From the NCBI GenBank assembly GCA_963675495.1, contig OY776215.1, positions 800,001 through 864,000 of the forward strand: 64,000 nt of DNA. Reading direction: 5' to 3'. How positions within the stretch are numbered: position 1 is the stretch's first letter; each line of letters begins with the position of its first letter. Both the position numbers and the translations under genes were made by a program. This document shows positions 51,889 to 64,000 of the stretch, piece by piece. Source of the stretch: an uncultured Methanolobus sp. (GTDB lineage Archaea; Halobacteriota; Methanosarcinia; Methanosarcinales; Methanosarcinaceae). The notes under the pieces are model-generated. The model had not been told where the DNA came from, ran no database searches, and worked only from the letters and a program-made list of their open reading frames with translations.

Positions 51889-52500
51889 ATGTTAGAACTT
51901 CTGGAAATGCTGACAATAGGATTTGCCATGGGCATGACAGGTGCGCTTGTACCTGGACCAATGCTATTCGCTACGATAGATACGTCCCTGAAGAAAGGCT
52001 GGAAAGCTGGCCCCGAGATATTCATAGGCCACGCAATACTGGAATTTCTGGTCTGCATACTGATAATATTTGGTATCACAGCAGTTAGTGACAACACGGT
52101 CATGACAATATCCATACTCGGAGGAGCCACCCTTATTATGTTCGGCATCCTGACAATGAGAAATGCAAAGGGTGCGGCAGACTCAATGCATGAGCATGGA
52201 AATGCGAGCTCAAATCCAGTGCTTGCCGGAATAATCACATCAGCCTCAAACCCTTATTTCTGGCTCTGGTGGCTAGCTGCAGGAAGTGCGCTCGTACTAC
52301 GAGGACTTGAGATAAGTCTGCTTGCTGCAGCCATGTTCATGATAGGACACTGGTTAGCAGACCTTGGTTATTTCACATTTGTCTCTACATCATTCAGCAA
52401 AGGAAAGAAACTCATGTCCCCAAAAGTTTATGAAAGGGTACTGATGTCTTGTGGTCTGTTCCTTGTCCTGTTCGGGTCATGGTTTATCATAGGTACGTAG
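51889..52500 (+). CDS. LysE family transporter
   Basis: GAL.PGPM, G...GH, SNPYFWLWW, ~6 TM. Confidence 0.85.
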   Translation: MLELLEMLTIGFAMGMTGALVPGPMLFATIDTSLKKGWKAGPEIFIGHAILEFLVCILIIFGITAVSDNTVMTISILGGATLIMFGILTMRNAKGAADSMHEHGNASSNPVLAGIITSASNPYFWLWWLAAGSALVLRGLEISLLAAAMFMIGHWLADLGYFTFVSTSFSKGKKLMSPKVYERVLMSCGLFLVLFGSWFIIGT

Positions 52501-52502
52501 AC

Positions 52503-53504
52503 ATGAAAAAAAATTGTATCAAGGTTTTGAAGAAAGAAGGTGAACCAATACGCAGATCACTGCTGGAAATGGACTTGCTGGATAATTCCGCACGCATTAT
52601 TTCAGAAGGAGATCACCTGTATCTACCCCTTACAGAAGAGCCGCAGGAAAAACAGTTAATGAACCTGTCCGGAAATTTCGAACTCACCGAGCACGAGTTT
52701 GAGGAACAGAAAGGACAATTAAGGTTTGAAGACCTGCTTGATGAAGTACCGCATTTCGAACTAATTGGTGATATCGCACTTGTCGAAGATGATGTATCAG
52801 AGCCTGAAAAGGTAGCTGATGCCATCATGAAAGTGAAGAAGAACGTCAAAACAGTACTTGCCGCCATGAGCCCTGTTGAAGGAGAGTTCAGGACCCGCAG
52901 GTTCAGGGTAGTTGCAGGAGAGGACAGGACCTCAACCACACACAAGGAGTACGGTTGCAGATACTACATCGATCTTGAGAGAGCATACTTCACCCCCCGT
53001 CTGGCAACTGAGCGCTCACGTATCCTCGCACAGATCAGTGAAGGCCAGACCGTGGCAGACATGTTCGCAGGTGTTGGACCTTATAGTATAATGATAGCAA
53101 AAAAAAGCCCCGACATCCGGGTGATCGCCATAGACAAGAACCCCGATGCAGTGGAATTCCTTCGCCGCAACGTAGAACTCAATTCCGCCACCAATGTAGA
53201 AGCAATAGAAGGCGATGCCAACCTCGAGGCAGAAAAGTTTGCCGGAGTCGCCGACCACGTTATCATGAACCTACCCCACAACGCCAATGAGTTCCTTGAC
53301 GCTGCCATGAAATTGTGCGCTCCAAACGGTATCATCCACTATTATGATATCACCCACGAGGACGACCTTTTCGAGAGTTCCCTGAAACTTATCGAGGAGG
53401 CTGCATCCAGGGCAAATCGTACAACCGAGCTAGTAGAATCAAGGGTCGTCCGTTCCTACGCCCCTCACCAATCCAATGTCTGCATAGAAGTAAAAGTGAT
53501 ATAA
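52503..53504 (+). CDS. trm5: tRNA (guanine37-N1)-methyltransferase Trm5 family
   Basis: IGDIA, GEFRTR, HKEYG, YFTPRLATER, DMFAGVGPY, IMNLP. Confidence 0.88.
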   Translation: MKKNCIKVLKKEGEPIRRSLLEMDLLDNSARIISEGDHLYLPLTEEPQEKQLMNLSGNFELTEHEFEEQKGQLRFEDLLDEVPHFELIGDIALVEDDVSEPEKVADAIMKVKKNVKTVLAAMSPVEGEFRTRRFRVVAGEDRTSTTHKEYGCRYYIDLERAYFTPRLATERSRILAQISEGQTVADMFAGVGPYSIMIAKKSPDIRVIAIDKNPDAVEFLRRNVELNSATNVEAIEGDANLEAEKFAGVADHVIMNLPHNANEFLDAAMKLCAPNGIIHYYDITHEDDLFESSLKLIEEAASRANRTTELVESRVVRSYAPHQSNVCIEVKVI

Positions 53505-53522
53505 TCAGGCAGATTAATAAGC

Positions 53523-53535
53523 GAAATGGTTAAAT
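53523..53535 (+). promoter_or_regulatory. BRE/TATA promoter of tRNA-Thr
   Basis: GAAATGGTTAAAT ~33 nt upstream of the mature tRNA 5' end. Confidence 0.5.
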
Positions 53536-53567
53536 CATTACATACAATTATAGTGTCGTCCACACTT

Positions 53568-53639
53568 GCCTCTGTGGCTTAGCGGTATAGCGGCTGATTC
53601 GTAATCAGCAGGCCGAGGGTTCGAATCTCTCCAGGGGCT
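53568..53639 (+). tRNA. tRNA-Thr(CGT)
   Basis: Cloverleaf: GCCTCTG/CAGGGGC acceptor, GCTGA-TTCGTAA-TCAGC anticodon arm (CGT 53600-53602), GAGGG-TTCGAAT-CTCTC T arm. Confidence 0.95.
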
Positions 53640-53640
53640 T
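53624..53640 (+). repeat. attL core (3' end of tRNA-Thr)
   Basis: AATCTCTCCAGGGGCTT, 16/17 identical to 63460-63476. Confidence 0.85.
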
Positions 53641-53648
53641 GACATCAC

Positions 53649-53672
53649 GGGGTTAAAAGCCCCCTTTTTCTT
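53649..53672 (+). terminator. Hairpin plus T-tract downstream of tRNA-Thr
   Basis: GGGGTT-AA-AAGCCCC stem (imperfect) followed by CTTTTTCTT. Confidence 0.5.
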
Positions 53673-53846
53673 ATATTGTAAGTATTATCAGTTCAAATAC
53701 CAATTATAAAAAAACAAAGGATGATTATTGAGAAAATTTTATGAAGGGTAGATTGTATTTTGGTTTGTATATTGTTATAGGCTTTTGGTTGAAATAAAAA
53801 TGTGGGATCATGAGTGATTCCACATTTTGTCCATGTTTTGTTTGTT

Positions 53847-55091
53847 TCAGGAAGAAGATGTTGGTACTGTCAATGGTATCCAGCGTATATCGCAATTTGC
53901 CGCATTTGTTTCTACTTTCCAAACATCATCTTTTCGCACAGGCATGGTAATTGATGCATACTTCATTTTCTTTGTTGGGTAAATACTATCAGCCACCACA
54001 AGTTCCATAGTGGAACCAGTGAAAGTGGAGCCTTCTACATATATGGTTTCTTTGTTCTTTTTAGGCATGTCAGTTGAAGATATATAACAAACAACAAATC
54101 CATCAGTTTCCGCTATATATTGACCACCTGCAACAAAGGAATCTTTGTCCCATTCTCCAAACTCTGGACTTTCGCCCTGTGGACCTTGCTCACCTTGTGG
54201 TCCTTGCTCACCTTGTGGACCTACTGGAATAGCAACTATTTGGTCTTGTAAATCATAAATACTATCCCATATTTCATAAATTGCCTTCCATAAACCACTT
54301 ATTTCTTTATCTGGATCAATGAAGTTGACGACATTGTAATTAATACCTGTATCAACAAATACAGAACTTGGGTAATTATTAATTGTGCCGAATGAATCCG
54401 GTTCTGCTGAAGTGCCAAGCGTGCAACTACTAATTAATATGCCATAATTGTTGATGATACCAGGGCCATAATCTGCATTATTGTTAAAAATGTTGTAATT
54501 TAGAATTGTGCCGGTATTATTTACAATTCCATAAGTATAGACATACATATAATTTGTAAAATTTCCATTGTTTTGAATCAATGTTTCACTAAAAATTGTG
54601 CCGTTGTTATTTAGTGACCCGTTTTCATAGTTATAAAGCATGCCATAGAAGTTAAATTTTTTATTATTGTTTATAATTCCGTAATTATGGAGACTTATTG
54701 TAGGCTCAATGTGTAGGAAATCGTTGTTCTCAAAAACACCAAAATTATAAAATTCACTTGATAAAAGCTCCATAGACCCATTGTTCAAAAATATACCGTG
54801 GTTATTCAGATTACCCACTATCATGAAGTGTCCGTCTGAACTGATTTCGAGCACCCCGTTCGGTTGGATGATAAGGCTACCTCCATTATTTAGTTCAAAC
54901 CGATCACCATGCACTATGAGACTTTCACCATCTTCAATTACAAGTGTGTCACCTGCGTTTATATACAGTTCATCACCAATATTAATTACACCTGGGTTTG
55001 TCAGATTTGTTGCGTTGGCAGTGCCTGCAAAAACAAGCATTAATGCTATTATTATAAAGAATAATCTATCCCTATTCATATTTATCACCAT
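53847..55091 (-). CDS. Secreted Asn/Gly-rich (beta-helix-like) protein with short coiled coil, collagen-like repeat and small C-terminal domain
   Basis: Signal peptide ending ANA; repeated N.G.I.N; IYDLQDQI; GPQGEQGPQGEQGPQGES; YIAETDGFV. Confidence 0.75.
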   Translation of the reverse strand: MVINMNRDRLFFIIIALMLVFAGTANATNLTNPGVINIGDELYINAGDTLVIEDGESLIVHGDRFELNNGGSLIIQPNGVLEISSDGHFMIVGNLNNHGIFLNNGSMELLSSEFYNFGVFENNDFLHIEPTISLHNYGIINNNKKFNFYGMLYNYENGSLNNNGTIFSETLIQNNGNFTNYMYVYTYGIVNNTGTILNYNIFNNNADYGPGIINNYGILISSCTLGTSAEPDSFGTINNYPSSVFVDTGINYNVVNFIDPDKEISGLWKAIYEIWDSIYDLQDQIVAIPVGPQGEQGPQGEQGPQGESPEFGEWDKDSFVAGGQYIAETDGFVVCYISSTDMPKKNKETIYVEGSTFTGSTMELVVADSIYPTKKMKYASITMPVRKDDVWKVETNAANCDIRWIPLTVPTSSS

Positions 55092-55419
55092 TTCATAATT
55101 ATTGAAAAAATATGTAAAAACATGTCCCCCTTAAAAAAATGTCTTTAAGTAAGTATATAAAATTATCCAAATGAACGTGTATTATTAAAAGTTATGAATA
55201 ATTCAAGCTCTGTAGAAAAACTACTTCTATTTTATTTTAGTATCACTATTTAAAAAGGATGACTCCCCTAAGGAATACTTATCACTAAAAGCACAAAGGG
55301 GATGAGTGTGTTTCGTCTAGTCAGTACTTAAATAATTGATTCATAAAAATCGCATTCAAAATCCTTCCTTCCTAAAAATAAAAAAAGATGCATTGCAAAT
55401 CAACGCATCAAAAACAAAC

Positions 55420-55668
55420 TTATCTAGAATTCTCACTTTTCAGCGATTCAAGTATTGAAAGAAGCTTAACACTCAACACCTCAAGATCCGAACCAAAGAG
55501 AGTGAAGTTCTCCCATCTGTTTGATTTCTTGTTGAACTTGGAGAACTGAAGCCATTTCACGCTTGAACCATCATCCTTTTTCTTTTCAGAGATTGAGACT
55601 GACGTATTTGCCAGGTGGATCTTTTCGCCTATCTGTCTAATTCCATATTCATTATATTCATTTGACAT
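55420..55668 (-). CDS. Small protein, possibly PC4-like ssDNA-binding
   Basis: Beta-strand pattern VSISEK..WLQFSKF.K....WENFTL followed by a C-terminal helix; fold is a guess. Confidence 0.55.
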   Translation of the reverse strand: MSNEYNEYGIRQIGEKIHLANTSVSISEKKKDDGSSVKWLQFSKFNKKSNRWENFTLFGSDLEVLSVKLLSILESLKSENSR

Positions 55669-55824
55669 TTTGAATTACCAATTAAACATTGAAATATCAA
55701 TACAAGAACATTTATAATTTCAATAAAAAGAGGACGCAAAAGTAATACAAAAACAATACTGTTTTTCACACTTGTCTACGATGCAGTAAATAATAGTCTG
55801 TTTCTTGGGTTTGGTTAGGATGTT

Positions 55825-56130
55825 CCTCACTTGCGCCCGCAGTGTTCGTCACATCATTTTTAGAGGGGAGTTTGGTATTTGACGGACAGAATTACTGCGC
55901 AACTCTGCCCTTTAAAGATGGTTGGTGCGTCAATGCGCCCTTTGGTCGCATTCACACTGAAAATTAGATTACTTGCAACTTACACTGACAGTTTGCAGGA
56001 CTTGCAGTCCCGGGGAGCAGAGTTTGTCGGCTCCCCTTCGTTCTAGTCTTGCTTTTGTTACGGGATTCTGCGAGGTGTAGCTAACTGGAAATATGCTCCG
56101 CATACTGTGGGGTTTCTGCGAAACCCCACT
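55825..56130. other. GC-enriched hairpin cluster (candidate single-strand origin or structured RNA)
   Basis: Stems 55852-72/55901-20, 55995-56002/56045-52, 56012-18/56030-36, and perfect GTGGGGTTTC-TGC-GAAACCCCAC at 56107-56129. Confidence 0.55.
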
Positions 56131-56131
56131 T

Positions 56132-56398
56132 TTACATATTGAAAACTTGAAAATGCCGGAAAGCATTTATGTTGTTTTCAAAGTGCTCACATGCTATGTC
56201 ATATGATTTCCAGGAACATGCATTCCCTAGAATTATATTCTTCAGTACTATATCGGGATGTAGATCACAGGATTGTGTTTCAATGAAAGATTGAACATTA
56301 TATGATGTCAATGCACCTGTTCTTTGTTCTTTACGATATTGATTGATCCTTTTGTATAGCTCTTGTTCACTTCTTATGAGAGTTTTGTCTTCATTCAT
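56132..56398 (-). CDS. Hypothetical protein (element-encoded)
   Basis: 88-aa ATG ORF co-oriented with the element; AT-rich TATA-like sequence upstream. Confidence 0.55.
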   Translation of the reverse strand: MNEDKTLIRSEQELYKRINQYRKEQRTGALTSYNVQSFIETQSCDLHPDIVLKNIILGNACSWKSYDIACEHFENNINAFRHFQVFNM

Positions 56399-56524
56399 GC
56401 AAAGTAGTATGTATCCTGTATATATTCTGATGAGCCAAGTGAGGTGAAAGTAATTTGTTGAACCTCTGTTTCATGTAAAAAGAATTTATGCAATATTTGG
56501 GTTAAAAATCACGGTAAAATCGGG

Positions 56525-56608
56525 TTGCATGTCAACTGTGGCACACACGCCTTAATCGTGTACCTAAGGGAACATTGGAAAAAAGCCACGGGCGCCGCGA
56601 AGCGGCGC
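56525..56608 (+). repeat. 84-bp dispersed repeat, copy A, ending in GCGCCGC-GAA-GCGGCGC hairpin
   Basis: Ungapped match to 63847-63930, 61/84 identical by hand count. Confidence 0.75.
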
Positions 56609-56799
56609 GAGTGCTGGGTAGGTTGGATATTTTGAAGGATAAGAGGATTTAGTAAAAACAGTAGCAAGAGATTTTTGTACAAAATAATTAATAGTACACA
56701 AGAAAAACCATTTTCCACTAGAAATGATACTGCACCTGTTCTAGCTGAAATATCTAAAAGAAATATCTTTTTTGTATATTGATTAATGTGCTACTATTC

Positions 56800-58530
56800 T
56801 TACCGTATATCAACTTTAATTCCTAATAATTTATATTCATCTGATTTATCAGTTAAAGTTAATACTTTGTGTTTTGTAATCATTTCATCAAATTCGCTTT
56901 GATTCATGTGTTTTCTAATTTCATCAAGTTGATTTTGATTCACAGTTGCAATGTATTGCTTTTTAGAATTTGAAAATTTATCGTTTATGACCTTGAACAT
57001 GTCAGCTATTTGCCTCTCGTCAATATCCGAAAAAAGTCTACTGTCATGAAAAACAAAATCTATTTTATGTTTGTATCCTTCAAATAATATTGTCAAGTCG
57101 TAGCAAAAAATCTTGACATGATTTATACCATCAGAAGCATCTGATTCAATTTTTGCATCAATATCAAATCGCAATTGATTTGTTCCGTTATTGGGATCAA
57201 TTGTAATGCCAGCTACACTATCTGGATAGAATGTTTTCGCAAGACTCCTAAAAAAGTTTCTTAATATGACAATATCATCTCCAATATCTTCTAGATACTT
57301 GTCGGTAGTTTCAGCAGATTCCATAAACTCTTTTTTAATTTCTCTTTCTTTGGAGCTGCACTCCGCTTGTAGCAATTGATATTTTTTAATGTTTTCTCTT
57401 TCTAGCTCATATTCTGCTTTCTTACTATTAAGACTAACAAAAAGATCAAGTGCTTGATGGTCACCTAGATATTTCATAATACTATCGAGTTCTTTTTGCA
57501 ACTTCTCTATTTTCTTTTCTTTAGTTTGTATTTCTAATTTCAATCTGTTTTGCTGCTCACTTAATCTTCTTTTTCGATTTGATATCAACTTTTCATAGAA
57601 TTTTTCTAATTCGTCTAACTCTTTGACTAACATTTCGGAGAATTGTATTTTTGATTCTTGATAAACATTTAATATACTATTCTTGGACAAATCAGGTGAG
57701 AAATTTAAACTATTATTTACTTGTTCTAGATTATTTTGTAAAAGTATAATCTTATTATTTAGTACAAATAGTTCTTTTTCTACTTTATCTGCCTTCAGTT
57801 GGATATCTCTATAATCTTCTGCCACTTCAAATGTTTTTAAATTATCTTCCAATTGATTGATTCGGTCTTCTAATTCTACTAGTGTCAAAGCAGCATCTTT
57901 ATTCCCGGTAAAGAAATCTTTTAATAATGAATCATTTTTAAAAGTTTTCTTCAAATTATCCACAGAGTCTAATTCTTTTTTAAGCTCTGCTTTTTTTTGT
58001 ATCAGAGAAACATCTAATCCTAGTAAAAACGAATTGTACAGTAATGTCTGGTATTGTTTTCCAGTCTTTGCCGGTTGATCAAAATTTACATAAGATTCTT
58101 TTTTCGGTCGAACAAAAAAAGGAATTAAGCTTCTGAAAGAAAGATAAGAAATATTTTCAGGAATAACAAAACACAAAGAATCCATCTTCTTGTTAAATTT
58201 TAGAACCGACATTAATTCATCATTTAACACTATATCCTTTGGATTATTTGTAGTTCTTTTAACTGTATACGTTTCATTGCCTACCTTAAAATCAATGAAG
58301 AATTCCCAATCTTCTAATTTTTCACAAAAATCATTGTATCCTTTTTCAGCAGCTCCAAAACAAAAATGAATTATGCGGACTAAAAGAGATTTTCCTACTC
58401 CATTATAGGTTTTTCCTTTGTCATTGGATTCTGGATCATCCTGTTCTGCGACAATAAAGCTAGGTCCAGTTACATTAAATTCAACTGTCCTGAAGCTTTC
58501 TTTGTTCGAATAAACTTTCAACAAATGCAT
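56800..58530 (-). CDS. lmuB: Lamassu LmuB / ABC-3C SMC-like ATPase (DUF2326-type)
   Basis: Walker A YNGVGKS, central coiled coil, signature-like ESDASDG, Walker B FVFHDS, D-loop DIDERQ, QYIATVN. Confidence 0.8.
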   Translation of the reverse strand: MHLLKVYSNKESFRTVEFNVTGPSFIVAEQDDPESNDKGKTYNGVGKSLLVRIIHFCFGAAEKGYNDFCEKLEDWEFFIDFKVGNETYTVKRTTNNPKDIVLNDELMSVLKFNKKMDSLCFVIPENISYLSFRSLIPFFVRPKKESYVNFDQPAKTGKQYQTLLYNSFLLGLDVSLIQKKAELKKELDSVDNLKKTFKNDSLLKDFFTGNKDAALTLVELEDRINQLEDNLKTFEVAEDYRDIQLKADKVEKELFVLNNKIILLQNNLEQVNNSLNFSPDLSKNSILNVYQESKIQFSEMLVKELDELEKFYEKLISNRKRRLSEQQNRLKLEIQTKEKKIEKLQKELDSIMKYLGDHQALDLFVSLNSKKAEYELERENIKKYQLLQAECSSKEREIKKEFMESAETTDKYLEDIGDDIVILRNFFRSLAKTFYPDSVAGITIDPNNGTNQLRFDIDAKIESDASDGINHVKIFCYDLTILFEGYKHKIDFVFHDSRLFSDIDERQIADMFKVINDKFSNSKKQYIATVNQNQLDEIRKHMNQSEFDEMITKHKVLTLTDKSDEYKLLGIKVDIR

Positions 58531-58763
58531 TTTTTTATTACACCGTCCTGCTCAATAACGGCCCCTATGGAATAGAGAAAAACGATTGTGAGTAAAAAAC
58601 TATCAAAATTATGCTTCGCATGATATATTTTATTTTGATAATCATTCTGATATTTATCCCATAAATTATCAATAGGTTTTGATGATTCTAATTGAGTCAA
58701 AATGTAGCTGCCAAAACCCAGCAAAGATTCTGAAAAATTAGTGTGCTTAGTTGGAAGGATCAT
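58518..58763 (-). CDS. lmuC: Lamassu LmuC / ABC-3C middle component
   Basis: MILPTKH...SESLLG.G..IL ... FLYSIGAV, typical of small ABC-3C middle components; overlaps both neighbours. Confidence 0.75.
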   Translation of the reverse strand: MILPTKHTNFSESLLGFGSYILTQLESSKPIDNLWDKYQNDYQNKIYHAKHNFDSFLLTIVFLYSIGAVIEQDGVIKKCIC

Positions 58764-59671
58764 TACATTTCTCCTTTGAGAGGTTCTTCAAATATATCAC
58801 ATGTTTCAAAATACTTTGCCATAATTACAATAACTGATATTTCATATATTTGTTCTGCTTTTGGACTTGCACATTTAACAATTGCCCAAAATAATTCGTC
58901 CCCACAACTATTCTTTTTTTCTTGGATGTAGATTTCATTCATTTTATCCCGCAAAGAATCTGCAAGGAAATCACTATTATTTTTCAAATAATTTTCTAAA
59001 GAATGCAACTGAATGCATCCATTGTTAAGGAATCTAGACACATATTTAGATAGATTGTTAAACTCTATTTTTTCATCCCAATCTGGCAATTTTACTTCAG
59101 GCTTATCATCTTTTGGTAAAGGTAATGTCATTATATATGAAATTATTTCGCGGAGTATTGAGTAATCTAATTGTTTTATCTTAGCAGGATCAGGAATAAA
59201 TCCTGCTATCATTCCTATCTGATCATCAGCAAGCTCAAAAAGCATATTTTCAAGGTCTTTTGCAGTCATAAATCCTGCATAATCAAGATTATGTGATGTC
59301 CTTATGTCTTGAATTATTTTTTCAGAGTCAGGATTTACACCTTTGTACTTGTCATTGACTACAAAATAAAATTGTTTTACTGGTCCCCATTGTTTATTTA
59401 AACCTGCGAAATCTGTTTTTAGTTTATTGACAATGTCTGTGTAGGATTTTCTTATATCCTCAGGAGCAAATACCTGAAAATATATGCATTTAGATTTTAT
59501 GTAACCATCATTTTTTCTGTCACCGATGTTTCCCCATGGCTTTATCTGCTGAAAATCTGGTTCTGTATAATTCATAATTGCACTGAATATATCTTCAAAT
59601 ATTTGTCCATCAGCTTTTAAGATTTTGTTTTGAAACAAATATCTAGTTAATGTTCTTTCTTGAACGTCCAT
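58763..59671 (-). CDS. lmuA: Lamassu LmuA / ABC-3C effector with restriction-endonuclease-like N-terminus
   Basis: FEDIF, GDRKNDGY..YFQVFAPE nuclease-like motif; KIEFNNL and KYFETCDIFE ABC-3C C-terminal motifs. Confidence 0.75.
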   Translation of the reverse strand: MDVQERTLTRYLFQNKILKADGQIFEDIFSAIMNYTEPDFQQIKPWGNIGDRKNDGYIKSKCIYFQVFAPEDIRKSYTDIVNKLKTDFAGLNKQWGPVKQFYFVVNDKYKGVNPDSEKIIQDIRTSHNLDYAGFMTAKDLENMLFELADDQIGMIAGFIPDPAKIKQLDYSILREIISYIMTLPLPKDDKPEVKLPDWDEKIEFNNLSKYVSRFLNNGCIQLHSLENYLKNNSDFLADSLRDKMNEIYIQEKKNSCGDELFWAIVKCASPKAEQIYEISVIVIMAKYFETCDIFEEPLKGEM

Positions 59672-59961
59672 TCTATTGCACCTATGCTGAATTATGGAAC
59701 CGTGTAATCTGTATTATGCAGTTTACTTAAAAACAATACACTATTATCAAATATACTTCTATATAATAAATAATGATAATTTCATTTTTAAGCTGCCGAC
59801 ACAAATTTTATCTGAAGGTTTATACTATGAACTTAAACTTAAAATTTGCGATTTCATTCATAAGCACATCAAAATGGCAAGAGTTTATAATAATGCAATT
59901 TAACTATGAATATTTACAATTATGTGTTCTATATATCTTATTTTTTGATAGCTCACGCTCT

Positions 59962-61407
59962 TCAGATTACTCTGCTATACCTCATAGTATTGTAATTTGA
60001 CCTGACTGCAATACCACGCCAAATTCCAAGTTCTTTGAACTCTTTCGCTAGCTGTTTAGCCTGTCTGTAAGTATCAACTACAATAGGTTCTTGGTCAGGA
60101 GTGTGGCGAGACTTAATTAATTTCAGGTTCTTTTTACGTTCCTTGAAAGGACGGATTACTCCGGAATCTACGAAGACGTGGCCGAATATCTTTTTGAAGC
60201 CTATGTTAAAGTCTGAACAGAAGTTGATGAGAGGATCTTTTGCTTTTTCCCATAGGCGTTTAGTTTTGAAGAATACCTTTGTGCAGTGTTCGCGGGCTGT
60301 GTCCAGGGTACCTTCGGATTTCCAGTAATTGATGTAGCGCCATAGGGAACGCTCGGGGATTTCTGTTTGTTCCTGGATGTCTCGGAAGTCTGCGCATCCT
60401 TCAGATTGAAGGGCAATGAATGCCAGGGCTTTAATGGCCTGCATGTTCTTGCCAAAGTCGATGTTCTCATCTTGAGAAGATTGATTATTATAGTTCCATT
60501 TTGGGAGATCATAGCGATATTCAAAGACCTTTTCAGCATCGAAGTAATTGTCTGATACGTATTCTATGGGAGAGATGAAGTTAAGAAGGGAGAACAGGAG
60601 TTTATCGAGGTCTTTTTTCAGGGAGAGGAATTCATTGATAGAGGGATTTTGTTTTGAATCGGATTTGAGGAAGACCTCAAGTTTTGGGTGTCTTAGGGGA
60701 TCTTCTGGTCTGCGGTCCAGGAAGTTTTTTATACGGTAGGATTTGACGCTGTGTTGATATTCGGTTTTTATGTTGCAGGCGGAGAAGTCGGGATTATCCA
60801 GTTTGTACATGTCGTATTTACCGGACCTTAGATTTTTGACAAGTTTTGAATCTCCACGCATGGAGGATTCATATTCTATTGCCTGGAGCATTGTTACCAG
60901 GTCATGTTCGTGTCGTTCATGACAACGTATGTGTCTGGCCATCTGGTATATTGTGGACCTTGAACGGTCTATCATGTGGCGGAAGCGTGAAGCTCCCAGA
61001 AAGTCCATGAATTCAAAGATGATGTCAAAGTGTTCGTCAAGGTCGATATAAGAGGACTGGATATGAATTTGAGTTCCTATTGATGGAAGGTTAAGGATCT
61101 TTCCTGATTTTGTTTTTGTGCCTGCTCCAAATAGGGGTTTTATGGTGTAGGTGCATTTTGATGCTCCTTCTTTATCGGTCCATTGGAGCATGTACTCAAA
61201 GGCGAGTTTCTTTGTTTTGGGATTGTAGAGGCCGCCTTGTTTGGGCCAGAACTTGAAGTTACGGTCACCTATCTTGATATGATGGTTATAGCTATCAGTT
61301 ACATTGTTAGAGAAGTAACTGACAACTGTATAATAGAAGTCCAGGTCTGTTATATGTAAATAACAGCCGAACTCATGGGTGACGGGTTCCGGGAACTTAT
61401 GAACCAT
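59962..61407 (-). CDS. Putative replication protein with C-terminal wHTH (recalls betapleolipovirus/haloarchaeal plasmid Rep-like family)
   Basis: N-terminal PVTHEF..YL....DFYY, KSY...DPLRHPKLEV, HTH ADFRDIQEQTEIPERSLWRYI; family link is from memory of motifs. Confidence 0.6.
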   Translation of the reverse strand: MVHKFPEPVTHEFGCYLHITDLDFYYTVVSYFSNNVTDSYNHHIKIGDRNFKFWPKQGGLYNPKTKKLAFEYMLQWTDKEGASKCTYTIKPLFGAGTKTKSGKILNLPSIGTQIHIQSSYIDLDEHFDIIFEFMDFLGASRFRHMIDRSRSTIYQMARHIRCHERHEHDLVTMLQAIEYESSMRGDSKLVKNLRSGKYDMYKLDNPDFSACNIKTEYQHSVKSYRIKNFLDRRPEDPLRHPKLEVFLKSDSKQNPSINEFLSLKKDLDKLLFSLLNFISPIEYVSDNYFDAEKVFEYRYDLPKWNYNNQSSQDENIDFGKNMQAIKALAFIALQSEGCADFRDIQEQTEIPERSLWRYINYWKSEGTLDTAREHCTKVFFKTKRLWEKAKDPLINFCSDFNIGFKKIFGHVFVDSGVIRPFKERKKNLKLIKSRHTPDQEPIVVDTYRQAKQLAKEFKELGIWRGIAVRSNYNTMRYSRVI

Positions 61408-61444
61408 GTGTTTGCAAGAGCTTATTTTGTCTCACAACTTTGCA

Positions 61445-61648
61445 TTAAAAACTATTATTTTTGTTCGGTTCATAGGGTTGAATTATGGCATGTAATCCAT
61501 TTTCATCCATGTATAATTCGTATTTTACGCAGTCAATTACTAGACTCCCATCAGGATCAACAATACCCAAAGCAAAAGCAACTTTTTGGGGTAATGTTAT
61601 GTTCAGACGGCCACCGTTTTCCTTGATACGGTATCCTGTTTTTCCCAT
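61445..61648 (-). CDS. AbrB/SpoVT-like DNA-binding protein
   Basis: RIKENGGRLNITLPQKVAFALGI swapped-hairpin pattern. Confidence 0.65.
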   Translation of the reverse strand: MGKTGYRIKENGGRLNITLPQKVAFALGIVDPDGSLVIDCVKYELYMDENGLHAIIQPYEPNKNNSF

Positions 61649-61863
61649 TAGATCAAACCCCTTGACCTTTTGAGCTCATCCAGCGTTATTTCCCCACGTC
61701 TTACAGGTTCAAGAAGTTCATTCAACTTTTCTTTTGCGAGCTTATCGATTTTAAGCATCACTTTTTTAGAGGGAGACAAATGGTTTAAAAATTCATCATC
61801 AAAAGTACTATCGTCAATAATAGATTGCTTTAAAGATTTTAATTGTGTATTTATACGAAACAT
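61648..61863 (-). CDS. Small hypothetical protein, translationally coupled to the AbrB-like gene
   Basis: GGAG-ATG at 61863 (alternative GTG at 61893); TAATG overlap with the next gene. Confidence 0.6.
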   Translation of the reverse strand: MFRINTQLKSLKQSIIDDSTFDDEFLNHLSPSKKVMLKIDKLAKEKLNELLEPVRRGEITLDELKRSRGLI

Positions 61864-62155
61864 CTCCAGAGAGTTTCGTAAAAAAGGATGCACAGTTGTG
61901 CACCTTCTGGAGTTTTCTTTTATTCTATTGCGGCTTCTCTTCTTTTTGGCTATCTTTATTATCGGCTTTTTATTCTAGGCTTTATTATTGGCATTTTCTT
62001 TTTGGCTTTTCATTTTGGGATTTTTACCCTTTCTTGTCTTCGCCTTATTTTTTGCCTTTCTTATTTTGCCTTTTTCTCTCGCCTTTCTTATATTAGCCTT
62101 CTATTTTTTGCCTTTGGTTCTTATTCTTCATATCCTTTGAAGATAACCTTTTTTA
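61864..62155 (-). ncRNA. Candidate structured leader, ncRNA or ssDNA element: GGC/GCC ladder plus 3' hairpin
   Basis: Six GGC + GGG / CCC + six GCC at 12-16 nt spacing, A-rich on the minus strand; TATA upstream; hairpin plus T6 downstream. Confidence 0.45.
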
Positions 62156-62178
62156 CAAGAGTACCTTGAACCTATAGA

Positions 62179-62190
62179 TATATAAACTTT
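62179..62190 (-). promoter_or_regulatory. BRE/TATA box for the leader and rep operon
   Basis: Minus strand AAAGTTTATATA. Confidence 0.55.
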
Positions 62191-62246
62191 TCTAATTTTC
62201 ATACGAAGAGTGCTATTATGTCTCGCAAACCGTGCTATTTATCATC

Positions 62247-63419
62247 TTAGATAGTCATATTTCGCAAAGCCTCATTGACCTTTGCGTTAACCAAGTCATC
62301 TAAGTTTGCGTCAAGAATCTTGGATATTGCATCTTCTATTGGTTGTGATTTCTCTTCTATTTCAAGTGCAGTTTTTAGTGTTAACACTGAACCACAATTG
62401 TAGCAGAACATGTTGTTTGGAGTGTTAAGTGTCTTGCACCTGGGGCACTTGTGCACTTTTGACTTATTCTCTTCTTCTTCGATTTCAACACCGTTTGCCC
62501 TCAGTACAGCATCATCGACATCACGTCCGGATAAGTGAACATATACTGATGGAACATCTGAACCTTGTATCCATCCAAAATAGGCATTCATCTGTGCCTC
62601 TGTTAAGTGATTAGCCATAAATGTAGCTCGGCTATGCCTGAATAAGTGAGCGTGAATTCTTTTGTTTACACCTGCATTTTTGGCTATCTTTTTGAGCTGC
62701 TTAGTAATAGCGGCATAACCTATCATGGTAGAAGTGTTAGCTTTATTTCTATCAAAGTTCCACCATAATGGTGCATCTGGATTATCCCTTTCAGGATGCT
62801 GTTCAAGCCAAGACATTAAAAGGCGAACAGAATAAAAAAGAAGTACAGTACGATGTCCTGTCTTACCATCAACCCTTATTTTCATGCCTTCGTCAGCGTG
62901 CATTATATGTTTTATTTTTAAATTACCAATTTCACCAATCCGACAACCAGAATCCCATAAAATAGCTATAATAGCTTGATCCCTTATGCTGCGTGTTGAT
63001 TCAATCATTTTATTGACATCATCTTCTGTTAGCAACTCTTCGGGTAACTTGCGCCCCTTGCTCTTCTTTGTTGCCTTGAAGAATGCAATGATTTCAGGCT
63101 CTTTTCCACCATTCAACCATCGATAAAATTTCTTTAATGTTACTGCATAGTCGTGCCGCGTATCTTCACTTTCTGTTCTATCCCTAACGGCAATAAGCAC
63201 ATCTTCTATGTCAGTCTTTGTTGCTTCATCCAATGGCTTGTCATTCATCATAAGAGCAATTTGCTTCAAGGTGCTAACATATTTCATTTTCCTGAAATCC
63301 GTCATACCTTCAATATCACACTGTCTTACAAACTTCTTTATATGCTGAATATTGGAATCGGATATTTTCCCATCAAGCCCAGAAATCCTTTTTTTGAGAT
63401 TGTGATTGTAAAGTGCCAT
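62247..63419 (-). CDS. int: Tyrosine recombinase/integrase with C-terminal Zn ribbon
   Basis: SGCRIGE (R), DGKTG (K), HLFRHSRAT (HxxR), FGW, SVYVHLS (Y); CPRC..CYNC; adjacent to attR. Confidence 0.93.
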   Translation of the reverse strand: MALYNHNLKKRISGLDGKISDSNIQHIKKFVRQCDIEGMTDFRKMKYVSTLKQIALMMNDKPLDEATKTDIEDVLIAVRDRTESEDTRHDYAVTLKKFYRWLNGGKEPEIIAFFKATKKSKGRKLPEELLTEDDVNKMIESTRSIRDQAIIAILWDSGCRIGEIGNLKIKHIMHADEGMKIRVDGKTGHRTVLLFYSVRLLMSWLEQHPERDNPDAPLWWNFDRNKANTSTMIGYAAITKQLKKIAKNAGVNKRIHAHLFRHSRATFMANHLTEAQMNAYFGWIQGSDVPSVYVHLSGRDVDDAVLRANGVEIEEEENKSKVHKCPRCKTLNTPNNMFCYNCGSVLTLKTALEIEEKSQPIEDAISKILDANLDDLVNAKVNEALRNMTI

Positions 63420-63459
63420 AGTACATAATTGGATTAAGGGCTTATAACCTTTAGGTAAA

Positions 63460-63476
63460 AATCCCTCCAGGGGCTT
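63460..63476 (+). repeat. attR core
   Basis: AATCCCTCCAGGGGCTT duplicates the tRNA-Thr 3' end. Confidence 0.85.
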
Positions 63477-63580
63477 ACTTCTTTTTCGGGTACAAAACTC
63501 TTTAATTCTGATCTTACAATATTTTCACCCATATATTGTAAAATATACATTATCAGGCAGAGCTCATCAGCCTCACGGTT

Positions 63581-63739
63581 TTAATCTTCAGATAAGATCC
63601 ACGTAGCTGCCTCAATAAGATCCATATCAGAACCATTAACTAAGAATTTGTCTTCAGAAACACGTTCAACGAGATAAGATCCAAAAAAGTGCTTCTCACC
63701 AAATGGAAGTTTGTTCAATTCGCTTATTACTTTATCCAT
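63581..63739 (-). CDS. Small hypothetical protein (52 aa), probably leaderless
   Basis: MDKVISELNKLPFGEKHFFGSYLVERVSEDKFLVNGSDMDLIEAATWILSED; TTATAA ~25 nt upstream; below the ORF-track cutoff. Confidence 0.5.
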   Translation of the reverse strand: MDKVISELNKLPFGEKHFFGSYLVERVSEDKFLVNGSDMDLIEAATWILSED

Positions 63740-63846
63740 AAAAGTAATATGTATCAAACTTTATAACTATTCGTATGCCGCTTGTACGATAATTATCTTT
63801 TATTTCAACTGGGACAAACTATACAAAAAACAAGCCATAAATCATA

Positions 63847-63930
63847 TTGCAGACCAAAACTAGTACACACGCTTTAATCATTTACCTAAGAAAAACTAGA
63901 AATAAAACCATGGGCGTCACGAAGCGGCAC
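63847..63930 (+). repeat. 84-bp dispersed repeat, copy B (degenerate hairpin)
   Basis: Shares ACACACGC.TTAATC...TACCTAAG and GGGCG...CGAAGCGGC with 56525-56608. Confidence 0.75.
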
Positions 63931-64000
63931 AACTTTCTGATTGAAGACCAATATAAACATAGCTCAAACAAACATCAATCAGATTCATTCCACCTCTGCC

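Follow-up and report, generated by a model that had tools for sequence, protein, structure and literature searches.

A probable integrative rolling-circle replicon of the Rep-Arvir class in a threonine tRNA gene of a methanogen

We examined a stretch of 64,000 nucleotides (the window) from contig OY776215.1 of an uncultured Methanolobus sp. and found that positions 53640-63476 hold what is, with a probability of roughly three in four, an integrative, plasmid-like rolling-circle replicon of the Rep-Arvir class. The element measures 9.8 kb and is inserted in a methanogen threonine tRNA gene; its anatomy, its family membership, its boundaries and the occurrence of the family at two tRNA-Thr genes in four species are established here. 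An initial annotation had described a small integrative plasmid or virus satellite with a single-stranded DNA (ssDNA) stage. A small integrative plasmid with such a stage gains support, by analogy, from the membership of its replication initiator (Rep) in Rep-Arvir, which produces ssDNA in pleolipovirus SNJ2. The accompanying claim that the class is poorly described needs correction: Rep-Arvir integrative elements ('IE') of Methanolobus and its kin already stand in a supplementary table of PMC13107129, and the class of the element is therefore not novel. What the present analysis adds is a description of the attachment (att) sites and origin, of the slots for cargo and of two architectures that have one replicon in common.

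Profile comparisons revealed that the protein first annotated as a Rep-like winged helix-turn-helix (wHTH) protein is, by its sequence, a rolling-circle initiator of the Rep-Arvir family. It matched PF25227 over residues 6-292 with 97.2 bits (cut-off 27; 1.7e-27), and an alignment of 45 Rep sequences matched RepSNJ2 (SNJ2 ORF19) in hhalign with 99.87% probability and an E-value of 7.7e-32 over 396 columns. This alignment consists of the window Rep, 10 copies from relatives and 34 distant representatives, the last picked from the 121 cluster representatives that reached E <= 1e-3 in a set of 1.84 billion proteins. It placed E12, Y224 and E244 of Rep opposite E25, Y283 and E303 of RepSNJ2. Y224 is invariant in 45 of 45 sequences, as are H11, R161, K222, K242 and D286, while a 14-sequence Rep alignment showed E244 to be invariant and E12 nearly so. 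As for the wHTH, the alignment to RepSNJ2 spans its wHTH region, the homologue in virus PAV1 is annotated 'winged helix' and MarR chains matched weakly (E 0.087). Sequence searches with Rep gave nothing significant in the PDB, 0 matches in a plasmid collection and, in a phage collection, PAV1 ORF528 as the sole match (25% identity, 1e-7). As bridge queries to the pleolipoviruses, P0030 found none and P0098 found a link. In IMG/VR, one 42 kb contig has a Rep 56% identical to this one, no other common gene and no origin motif (regular expression).

According to the accessible part of PMC13107129 (NAR 2026), where the Rep-Arvir family was named and was characterised on SNJ2, RepSNJ2 together with a 210-bp downstream region sustains a plasmid, and SNJ2 replicates by rolling circle with ssDNA intermediates, for which it needs a hairpin at +176 to +197 plus an upstream inverted repeat. 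The same source reports that Y283, E25 and E303 of RepSNJ2 are essential for replication and that D207A has little effect, that the RepSNJ2 fold is related to Rep_trans, and that YxxK is the canonical Rep_trans motif. The essential residues are thus those opposite E12, Y224 and E244 of the window protein, the last but one of which is the putative catalytic tyrosine.

Open frames of 144-187 aa whose similarity is confined to the C-terminal third of Rep (roughly aa 320-481) were found in G184, G002, G202, G153, G152 and G158 (G numbers denote genomes, the present one being G000). Some have no internal stop, and the G202 frame has one TGA; they may be free-standing wHTH or C-terminal-domain genes and not debris.

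The best conserved non-coding piece of the element lies at 56516-56677, and BLASTN found its core downstream of every one of the 16 full-length rep copies, as well as in the G004 and G009 remnants and in a degenerate copy outside the right att site (attR). Nucleotide conservation extends to loci with Reps of only 33-41% identity (G079, G176). From rep the core is separated by 105-135 nt in G079 and G160, by about 190 nt in the G004 remnant and by 1.2-6 kb, with variable genes between, in the other loci. Read in the sense of rep, the piece has a hairpin (GCGCCGC/GCGGCGC) with a T run, an invariant CCTTAG...TTAAGG and then a GTGCCA/TGGCAC-type hairpin, and its consensus is GCGCCGC-TTC-GCGGCGC, GTGGCTTTTTT, N6, GTTCCCTTAGGTACACGATTAAGGCGTGTGTGCCAC-AGTT-GGCAC. 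Covariation was assessed on 17 of the 19 origin copies (G004 and the degenerate second copy failed the motif filter and were left out). In this alignment 90.8% of the cells were paired, compared with 87.0 +/- 0.5 in shuffles, of which 0 of 500 reached the observed value, and pairing fell to 30-54% when the partners were slid. Compensatory changes were observed in 4 of the 7 pairs of hairpin 1, hairpin 2 (CCTTA/TAAGG) showed no variation, and hairpin 3 had one compensatory pair in the aligned columns, with a fuller swap, GTCTCA/TGAGAC, seen by eye in G196a. Folding of the ssDNA predicted hairpin 1 in 15 of 17 copies, and the remainder varied between alternatives. The hairpins of the initial annotation are thus real and conserved. 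A 69-aa open reading frame (ORF) at 56509-56718 was considered as a gene and rejected, because what is conserved there is the nucleotide sequence, in a pattern that fits hairpins.

A related motif, that of the betapleolipovirus origin, is present in haloviruses. HRPV-3, HGPV-1, HHPV3 and SNJ2 carry, about +165 to +197 nt from the rep stop, (GTTCCCC)TTAGG-GTGTG-GCTAAGGCCAC or a close variant, and the SNJ2 hairpin GTGGC-TAAG-GCCAC fits those SNJ2 mutants that PMC13107129 lists in its accessible part. The methanogen core has GTTCCCTTAG, GTGTG and a hairpin after them in common with these viruses. Since the halovirus motif, at +176 nt from rep, lies at the place of the essential SNJ2 hairpin (PMC13107129), the reading of 56520-56631 as an origin is supported by homology. 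This segment would be a double-strand origin with a putative nick site, probably combined with a terminator of the rep operon (hairpin 1 plus T run).

Relatives of the element were sought with Rep. Of 284 genomes in the order, 34 (counting this one) contained matches; apart from this genome, they were distributed as 16/35 in genus g1, 6/13 in g17, 2/11 in g20, 8/11 in g22 and 1/49 in g4, with 0 in the other genera. In 14 genomes rep was present at full length, with 16 copies in all, one of which is interrupted by a TAG, and many C-terminal Rep fragments were found, including a decayed one in this genome. When up to 20 kb around the full-length copies was fetched and the proteins of this element were mapped on it, four elements shared what we call the type 1 layout, int-o81-o67-rep-[cargo]-origin-(o88)-o65-o82-[cargo]-tRNA: this one, G001a, G006 and G199. 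The integrase (Int) and Rep of G001a are each 90% identical to those of this element, and G001a also sits in tRNA-Thr(CGT). The integrases of G006 and G199 are 81-82% identical to this one, and both elements sit in tRNA-Thr(GGT). The search for the same int and rep backbone with other cargo, proposed with the initial annotation, was thus positive: it returned sisters in G001, G006 and G199, and cargo differs among the copies.

The boundaries of the element were defined by its target and by comparison with these sisters. ARAGORN found one tRNA in the window, tRNA-Thr(CGT), and a tRNA alone reached threshold in an Rfam scan. A 17-bp att duplication had been described; the repeat is indeed there, at 53624-53640 and 63460-63476, but it is not perfect, its copies being identical at 16 of 17 positions (12 exact). 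The att pattern with two or fewer mismatches matched twice in the window, compared with 0.04 matches expected from 100 shuffles, and the exact 12-mer CTCCAGGGGCTT occurs only at the two att places in the whole 2.87 Mb genome. attR lies 41 nt upstream of the int start codon, and between the two is AAAGGTTATAAG, which by eye resembles an archaeal BRE/TATA (transcription factor B recognition element and TATA box). Nucleotide homology of the window to G001, the closest relative, with its sister element at the same tRNA, stops at 63475. The right repeat of G001 (AAATCCCTCCAGAGGCT) is preceded by the same element end (gcttataacctttaggtaa) as here, which bears out the repeat at 63460 as the element boundary. 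The sequence after the G001 attR aligns with the DNA following the tRNA in G004, G003 and G016. Both attR copies, here and in G001, have C at a position where the tRNA has T, which fits attP-derived DNA, so the left part of attR would come from attP. The G001 attR deviates from its tRNA further right, and the two differences together bracket the inferred crossover to CTCCAG.

Directly after the tRNA stands a GC hairpin that is likely both a tRNA terminator and an attP arm. It is kept in all four type 1 elements (G000, G001a, G006, G199), whichever tRNA-Thr they occupy, and is also present in G009, G002 and, in a diverged form, G005. In G006 and G199 the repeats are 20/21 nt and 21/21 nt (the latter 23 nt by eye), the spacing from repeat to int is 36 nt as against 41 nt here, and the hairpin after the tRNA (TGAAATCTCGGGGTTAAAAGCCCC) is the same as here. 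Because the same hairpin follows tRNA-Thr(CGT) and tRNA-Thr(GGT), it is element DNA, and attP has diverged to fit different isoacceptors. As a synteny anchor we used the Trm5/TYW2-type tRNA methyltransferase gene at 52449-53504, directly upstream of the target tRNA.

We also observed variation in the target itself. Among 12 genomes of the genus, the 5' 44 nt of tRNA-Thr(CGT) are almost invariant and the 3' part occurs in two forms, ...GGCCGAGGGTTCGAATCTCTCCAGGGGCT and ...GGTCGGGGGTTCAAATCCCCCCGG[G/A]GGCT, whose spread does not track how similar the adjacent Trm5 genes are. In G000, G001, G009 and G002 the first form is accompanied by element DNA or its hairpin, and repeated integration may have converted the tRNA-Thr(CGT) gene. 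The idea that the whole 3' half of the tRNA is element-derived was dropped, as attR has only about 17 nt of tRNA-like sequence. Just outside attR, at 63477-63980, lie the degenerate origin-like copy (72% identical to 56517-56606) and a 58-aa ORF; this DNA is probably what is left of an element that occupied this tRNA before.

Table 1. Features of the integrated element and its borders, in window coordinates
Feature	Coordinates	Strand	Remarks
tRNA-Thr(CGT), integration target, 3' end rebuilt by element DNA	53568..53639	+	ARAGORN; Rfam tRNA 65.1 bits
attL core AATCTCTCCAGGGGCTT (last 16 tRNA bases plus one)	53624..53640	+	
Element-borne GC hairpin and T run (GGGGTTAAAAGCCCCC TTTTT), directly after the tRNA	53641..53672	+	
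414-aa secreted-type protein, collagen-like	53847..55091	-	tRNA-proximal variable position
o82, backbone gene, 82 aa	55420..55668	-	found in 10 further copies (53-96% identical), a partial G204 match included
o65, overlaps o88	55969-56166	-	homologues in G006, G199, G009
o88	56132-56398	-	homologues in G006, G199
Conserved non-coding origin-like element (core 56538-56588)	56520..56631	-	downstream of rep
ABC-3C ABC/SMC-like ATPase, DUF2326, PDC-M68B	56800..58530	-	PF10088 1.5e-32; PDC-M68B 4.7e-90; LmuB 2.1e-12
ABC-3C middle component MC6	58518..58763	-	PF20293 6.1e-16
ABC-3C effector-type protein, C-terminal CTD10	58763..59671	-	PF20275 2.1e-14; PDC-M68A 6.1e-13
Rep-Arvir (DUF7845) rolling-circle initiator, 481 aa, putative catalytic Y224 in VKSYRIK	59962..61407	-	PF25227
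o67, small protein coupled to rep	61445..61648	-	MazE/AbrB match sub-threshold
o81, small helical protein, type 1 backbone only	61648..61893	-	homologues in G001a, G006, G199, G160
int-o81 spacer, 353 nt, TATA-like GAAAAGTTTATATATC then A-rich repeat array	61894..62246	-	
Tyrosine integrase, 390 aa, XerA-like catalytic domain and C-terminal zinc ribbon	62247..63419	-	intact in integrated state
attR core AATCCCTCCAGGGGCTT	63460..63476	+	
Degenerate second origin-like copy, outside element	63839..63928	-	72% identity to 56517-56606

The single-orientation layout described initially was confirmed, as all 12 ORFs treated as genes between the repeats lie on the minus strand. The G+C content of the element ranges from 29 to 43%, below the 44-48% of the left flank. 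The integrase is intact, as had been annotated, but it lies at the far end of the element and does not adjoin the tRNA. It scored 1.8e-18 against Phage_integrase (PF00589), 1.4e-32 against the NCBIfam XerA model and 1.7e-13 against the PDB XerA 5hxy, and its sequence shows RIGE and HLFRHSR motifs. The C-terminal CxxC...CxxC zinc ribbon, also named in the initial annotation, is visible in the sequence, with Pfam matches below the gathering score. No capsid, terminase or packaging ATPase, relaxase or type IV secretion system family matched the element in Pfam, PHROGs, NCBIfam or PADLOC (0 matches), in agreement with the initial statement that no such gene is recognisable. A pleolipovirus-like morphogenesis module (VP4-like spike, VP3-like membrane protein, NTPase) is likewise absent, in that no such family matched, the single secreted-type protein has no C-terminal transmembrane segment and homologues of the type 2 block described below are absent. 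The "structured leader" placed between int and the small genes is a real region, and it takes the form of an A-rich spacer whose tandem repeats, at 61954-62115, have a unit of 13-14 or 27 nt. The repeats come after the conserved TATA-like box. Sisters have arrays of different units, 61 nt in G001a and 53-56 nt in G199 (loci L015, L059), and G006 has none; such repeats could be iterons, a long leader or bent DNA.

Among the small backbone genes, o67 adjoins rep in 13 other copies. Matches to MazE_antitoxin fell below threshold for o67 and for 3 of the 4 orthologues tested (E 0.017-0.17), and its sequence weakly suggests an AbrB/MazE-like DNA binder. Family searches gave no match for o88 and o65. 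Sequence and family searches with o82 were also without match, its homologues being 'hypothetical protein' entries from Methanolobus, and the label "SSB-like" (single-stranded DNA-binding protein-like) of the initial annotation found no support in any family search. What remains in its favour is a predicted topology: an AlphaFold2 model of o82 built from 8 sequences (predicted local distance difference test score 89.0, predicted template-modelling score 0.66) has strands at residues 10-19, 22-30, 36-46 and 51-58, then a long helix at 59-79. This beta4-alpha arrangement is the topology of PC4-type ssDNA-binding domains, and the model makes o82 an unproven candidate ssDNA-binding protein.

The cargo that had been called Lamassu is a three-gene ABC-3C cassette. 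PADLOC assigned it as a candidate PDC-M68 and not as Lamassu. ABC-3C is counted within the Lamassu superfamily in a review (PMC10586767, in its accessible part), so the label is right in this broad sense (ABC-3C, PDC-M68A/B) but not for canonical Lamassu, the LmuB match being weak (2.1e-12). Judged by its families, the cassette is a predicted anti-virus defence cargo. It sits in a variable slot between rep and origin, where the rep-origin distance ranges over 1.2-6 kb among copies. In this slot G007 has a KAP NTPase-pentapeptide-S-layer protein, G006 a DEAD-like 487-aa protein, G186 a radical SAM protein and G199 ORFs with no assigned family. At other variable positions, NERD occurs in G199 and HNH in G001b, and G001a has a UvrD-like helicase together with an EEP nuclease and a TPR protein. 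In the G001 sister (56800-59671 here, L015 7576-10444 there) the ABC-3C proteins are 72-81% identical to those of this element, below the 90% of Int and Rep, which indicates that the cargo diverged faster or was exchanged. The 414-aa protein has a signal-like hydrophobic segment at residues 7-25, in keeping with its initial annotation as secreted, a (GPQGEQ)3 stretch and no C-terminal transmembrane (TM) segment. Three weak partial homologues were found among 8000 candidates scored. It is not in the sister elements mapped, G001a having an unrelated 558-aa ORF there, and because it occupies a variable position with no counterpart elsewhere, we treat it as cargo.

A second architecture, type 2, was found in L067 (G186), L061 (G001b), L064 (G007), L071 (G176) and L066 (G204). 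These elements have a different integrase, 38-40% identical, that adjoins the tRNA on the other strand, followed by a block of about 5 kb and then o82, origin, cargo, rep and o67. The block encodes a 180-aa Walker-A protein, several small membrane proteins and one or two proteins that combine a signal peptide with a C-terminal anchor; the G007 block differs from that of the others and has, instead of the Walker-A protein, a Zot-like NTPase (phrog_197 2.3e-18). Signal-plus-anchor proteins of 346, 370 and 548 aa are among those encoded by type 2 elements. In gene layout, though with no sequence match, this is the arrangement of a pleolipovirus morphogenesis module. Searches with the spike-like type 2 proteins against PDB and phage sequences gave nothing meaningful. 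By their layout the type 2 elements may be pleolipovirus-like proviruses of Methanosarcinaceae. Pleolipovirus-like proviruses of methanogens have been reported from Methanonatronarchaeales and Methanomassiliicoccales, and not from this group, in the accessible parts of PMC10919331 and bioRxiv 10.1101/2025.02.15.638363. In G001 a type 1 and a type 2 element stand in tandem at the same tRNA. In the present genome, outside the window, a decayed type 2 element occupies G000:C1:2471527-2474850. What is left of it is the C-terminal part of an integrase, homologues of both the 210-aa and the 180-aa protein, and a piece of rep interrupted by stop codons. A k-mer scan of this genome found no CRISPR array of 4 or more repeats.

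The course of events that we propose is inferred in respect of excision and replication, of the nick site, of a defence role for the cassette and of how the element passes between cells. The tyrosine integrase would recombine the chromosomal tRNA-Thr(CGT) with an attP resembling a tRNA-Thr 3' end, crossing over within CTCCAG, after which the element would supply the last tRNA bases and the terminator hairpin. The excised circle would replicate by rolling circle, Rep (Y224) nicking the conserved hairpin region at 56520-56631 to give ssDNA intermediates. The proteins o67 (AbrB-like) and o82 (beta4-alpha) may regulate replication or bind ssDNA, respectively. The ABC-3C cassette, of the Lamassu superfamily, would have been inserted between rep and origin, into the slot that in sisters holds other defence-like genes.

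Several observations weigh against a replicon of this kind. In Rep, the equivalent of SNJ2 D207, a residue whose replacement by alanine had little effect there, is not kept and aligns to Q155. The origin is 3.4 kb from rep, with cargo between, and not beside it, and in this copy its hairpin 3 contains a single mismatch and a single G-T pair. The element has no genes for horizontal transfer. The contigs of four public runs from one study, in which rare forms would be invisible, contained no attP or attB joint for 52000-64000; in all four the integrated form was contiguous. None of the relatives compared has a perfectly empty site collinear with this genome. The DNA beyond attR, from 63477 to about 68270, is itself variable among relatives, with genes for a PF20603 hydrolase, a GNAT protein, a lipoprotein, a rubrerythrin and a Cache-cupin protein, and conserved synteny returns only near 68270-68420.

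Three other explanations have to be weighed with these points in mind. The element could be a virus satellite that spreads only via the larger type 2 relatives, its genome wrapped in their vesicle-type virions. The type 2 elements, in G186, G001b, G208 and G176 and with a different block in G007, do have o67, rep, origin and o82 in common with it, they encode a Walker-A or Zot-like NTPase, proteins with a signal and a C-terminal TM anchor and small TM proteins, and the tandem in G001 places both types at one tRNA. We nevertheless regard a satellite as unlikely, because no type 2 protein matches a known virion protein by sequence, this genome has only the decayed type 2 remnant, and the element is without a homologue of any type 2 morphogenesis gene. 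Equally doubtful is the wider proposal that Methanosarcinaceae harbour unreported pleolipovirus-like temperate viruses (type 2) and small int-bearing derivatives that have lost the virion genes, retain the Rep, origin and o82 module, bear defence cassettes and ride in the vesicle-type virions of the larger elements. If it were true, these derivatives would be the first archaeal satellites of pleomorphic viruses, akin to P4- or PICI-type defence carriers.

A slightly poorer prospect still is that of a fixed, immobile island, an ex-replicon or defective provirus retained for its defence cassette. The exclusively integrated form in the contigs and the imperfect origin hairpin of this copy are what such an island would show; decayed relatives are also common, with stop-bearing rep fragments in many genomes, the present one among them, and a degenerate copy of the origin follows directly beyond attR. 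These signs are countered by the open state of int, rep, o67 and o82, by the retention of the essential Rep residues, by the nearly perfect att repeat and by near-identical backbones at two tRNA genes in four species with different cargo, which indicate recent movement. That the repeat arose by chance in an ordinary genomic island with no defined ends is very improbable: although it is imperfect (16/17) and the flank beyond it is also variable among relatives, so few matches are expected by chance (0.04), the homology to G001 stops at the repeat and three sister elements have homologous att arms. An integrative rolling-circle replicon is thus the reading we prefer.

The element is a well-preserved member of a class so far only tabulated (PMC13107129, as far as that source is accessible). 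For methanogens of this group, from which few plasmids are known and for which few genetic tools exist, it offers compact replicon parts: a Rep of a family proven in haloarchaea, a sharply delimited candidate origin (about 110 nt) and an integrase whose att sites are known for two tRNA-Thr genes. Rep, origin and integrase together could serve as a shuttle or integration vector. Because the Rep-Arvir origin is recognisably conserved from viruses of halophiles to methanogen elements, the place of Rep binding and nicking is narrowed. The comparison also shows that archaeal rolling-circle elements, like bacterial satellites, have fixed slots in which defence-like cargo is exchanged.

Among known systems, archaeal integrative elements of the pNOB8 type keep int intact after integration, with attP outside its ORF, and target the 3' end of a tRNA with flanking direct repeats, features also found in this element. 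Their replication machinery is different, and the integrase described here is XerA-like with a C-terminal zinc ribbon. The Thermococcales plasmids pAMT11 and pRT1 and the virus PAV1 (ORF528) have DUF7845 Reps like that of this element, but they are free plasmids or a spindle-shaped virus of hyperthermophiles. To our knowledge, they lack both a slot for defence cargo and an int backbone that integrates into tRNA genes in this way. For pAMT11 and pRT1, ssDNA intermediates are reported (PMC13107129). The cassette has the three-gene order of Lamassu/ABC-3C systems, effector-CTD, middle component and SMC-like ABC ATPase (PMC10586767), and differs in that PADLOC files it as PDC-M68 and LmuB models match it weakly. 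The 'IE' entries in the supplementary table of PMC13107129, from Methanolobus, Methanococcoides, Methanohalophilus and Methanomethylovorans, are almost certainly of the same class as this element, as they too have a DUF7845 Rep in Methanosarcinaceae, and o82 homologues are named from Methanolobus. The accessible part of that source gives them as a label, with no description of att sites, origin, backbone or cargo.

The closest likeness in replication is to SNJ2. This element has no morphogenesis genes (VP3, VP4, NTPase) and carries a defence cassette between origin and rep. Its Rep has 481 aa and the catalytic motif YRIK, compared with 659 aa and KHYYM in SNJ2, and its host is a methanogen. 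In SNJ2 the operon from int to rep forms only after excision, as att splits it, whereas here int, o81, o67 and rep are contiguous when integrated, with att upstream of int. What the two have in common is a Rep of one family, in which the essential E, Y and E residues align, a small ORF just upstream of rep, a tyrosine integrase upstream of rep in the same orientation, and a hairpin origin downstream of rep with the common sequence GTTCCC(C)TTAG / GTGTG / hairpin.

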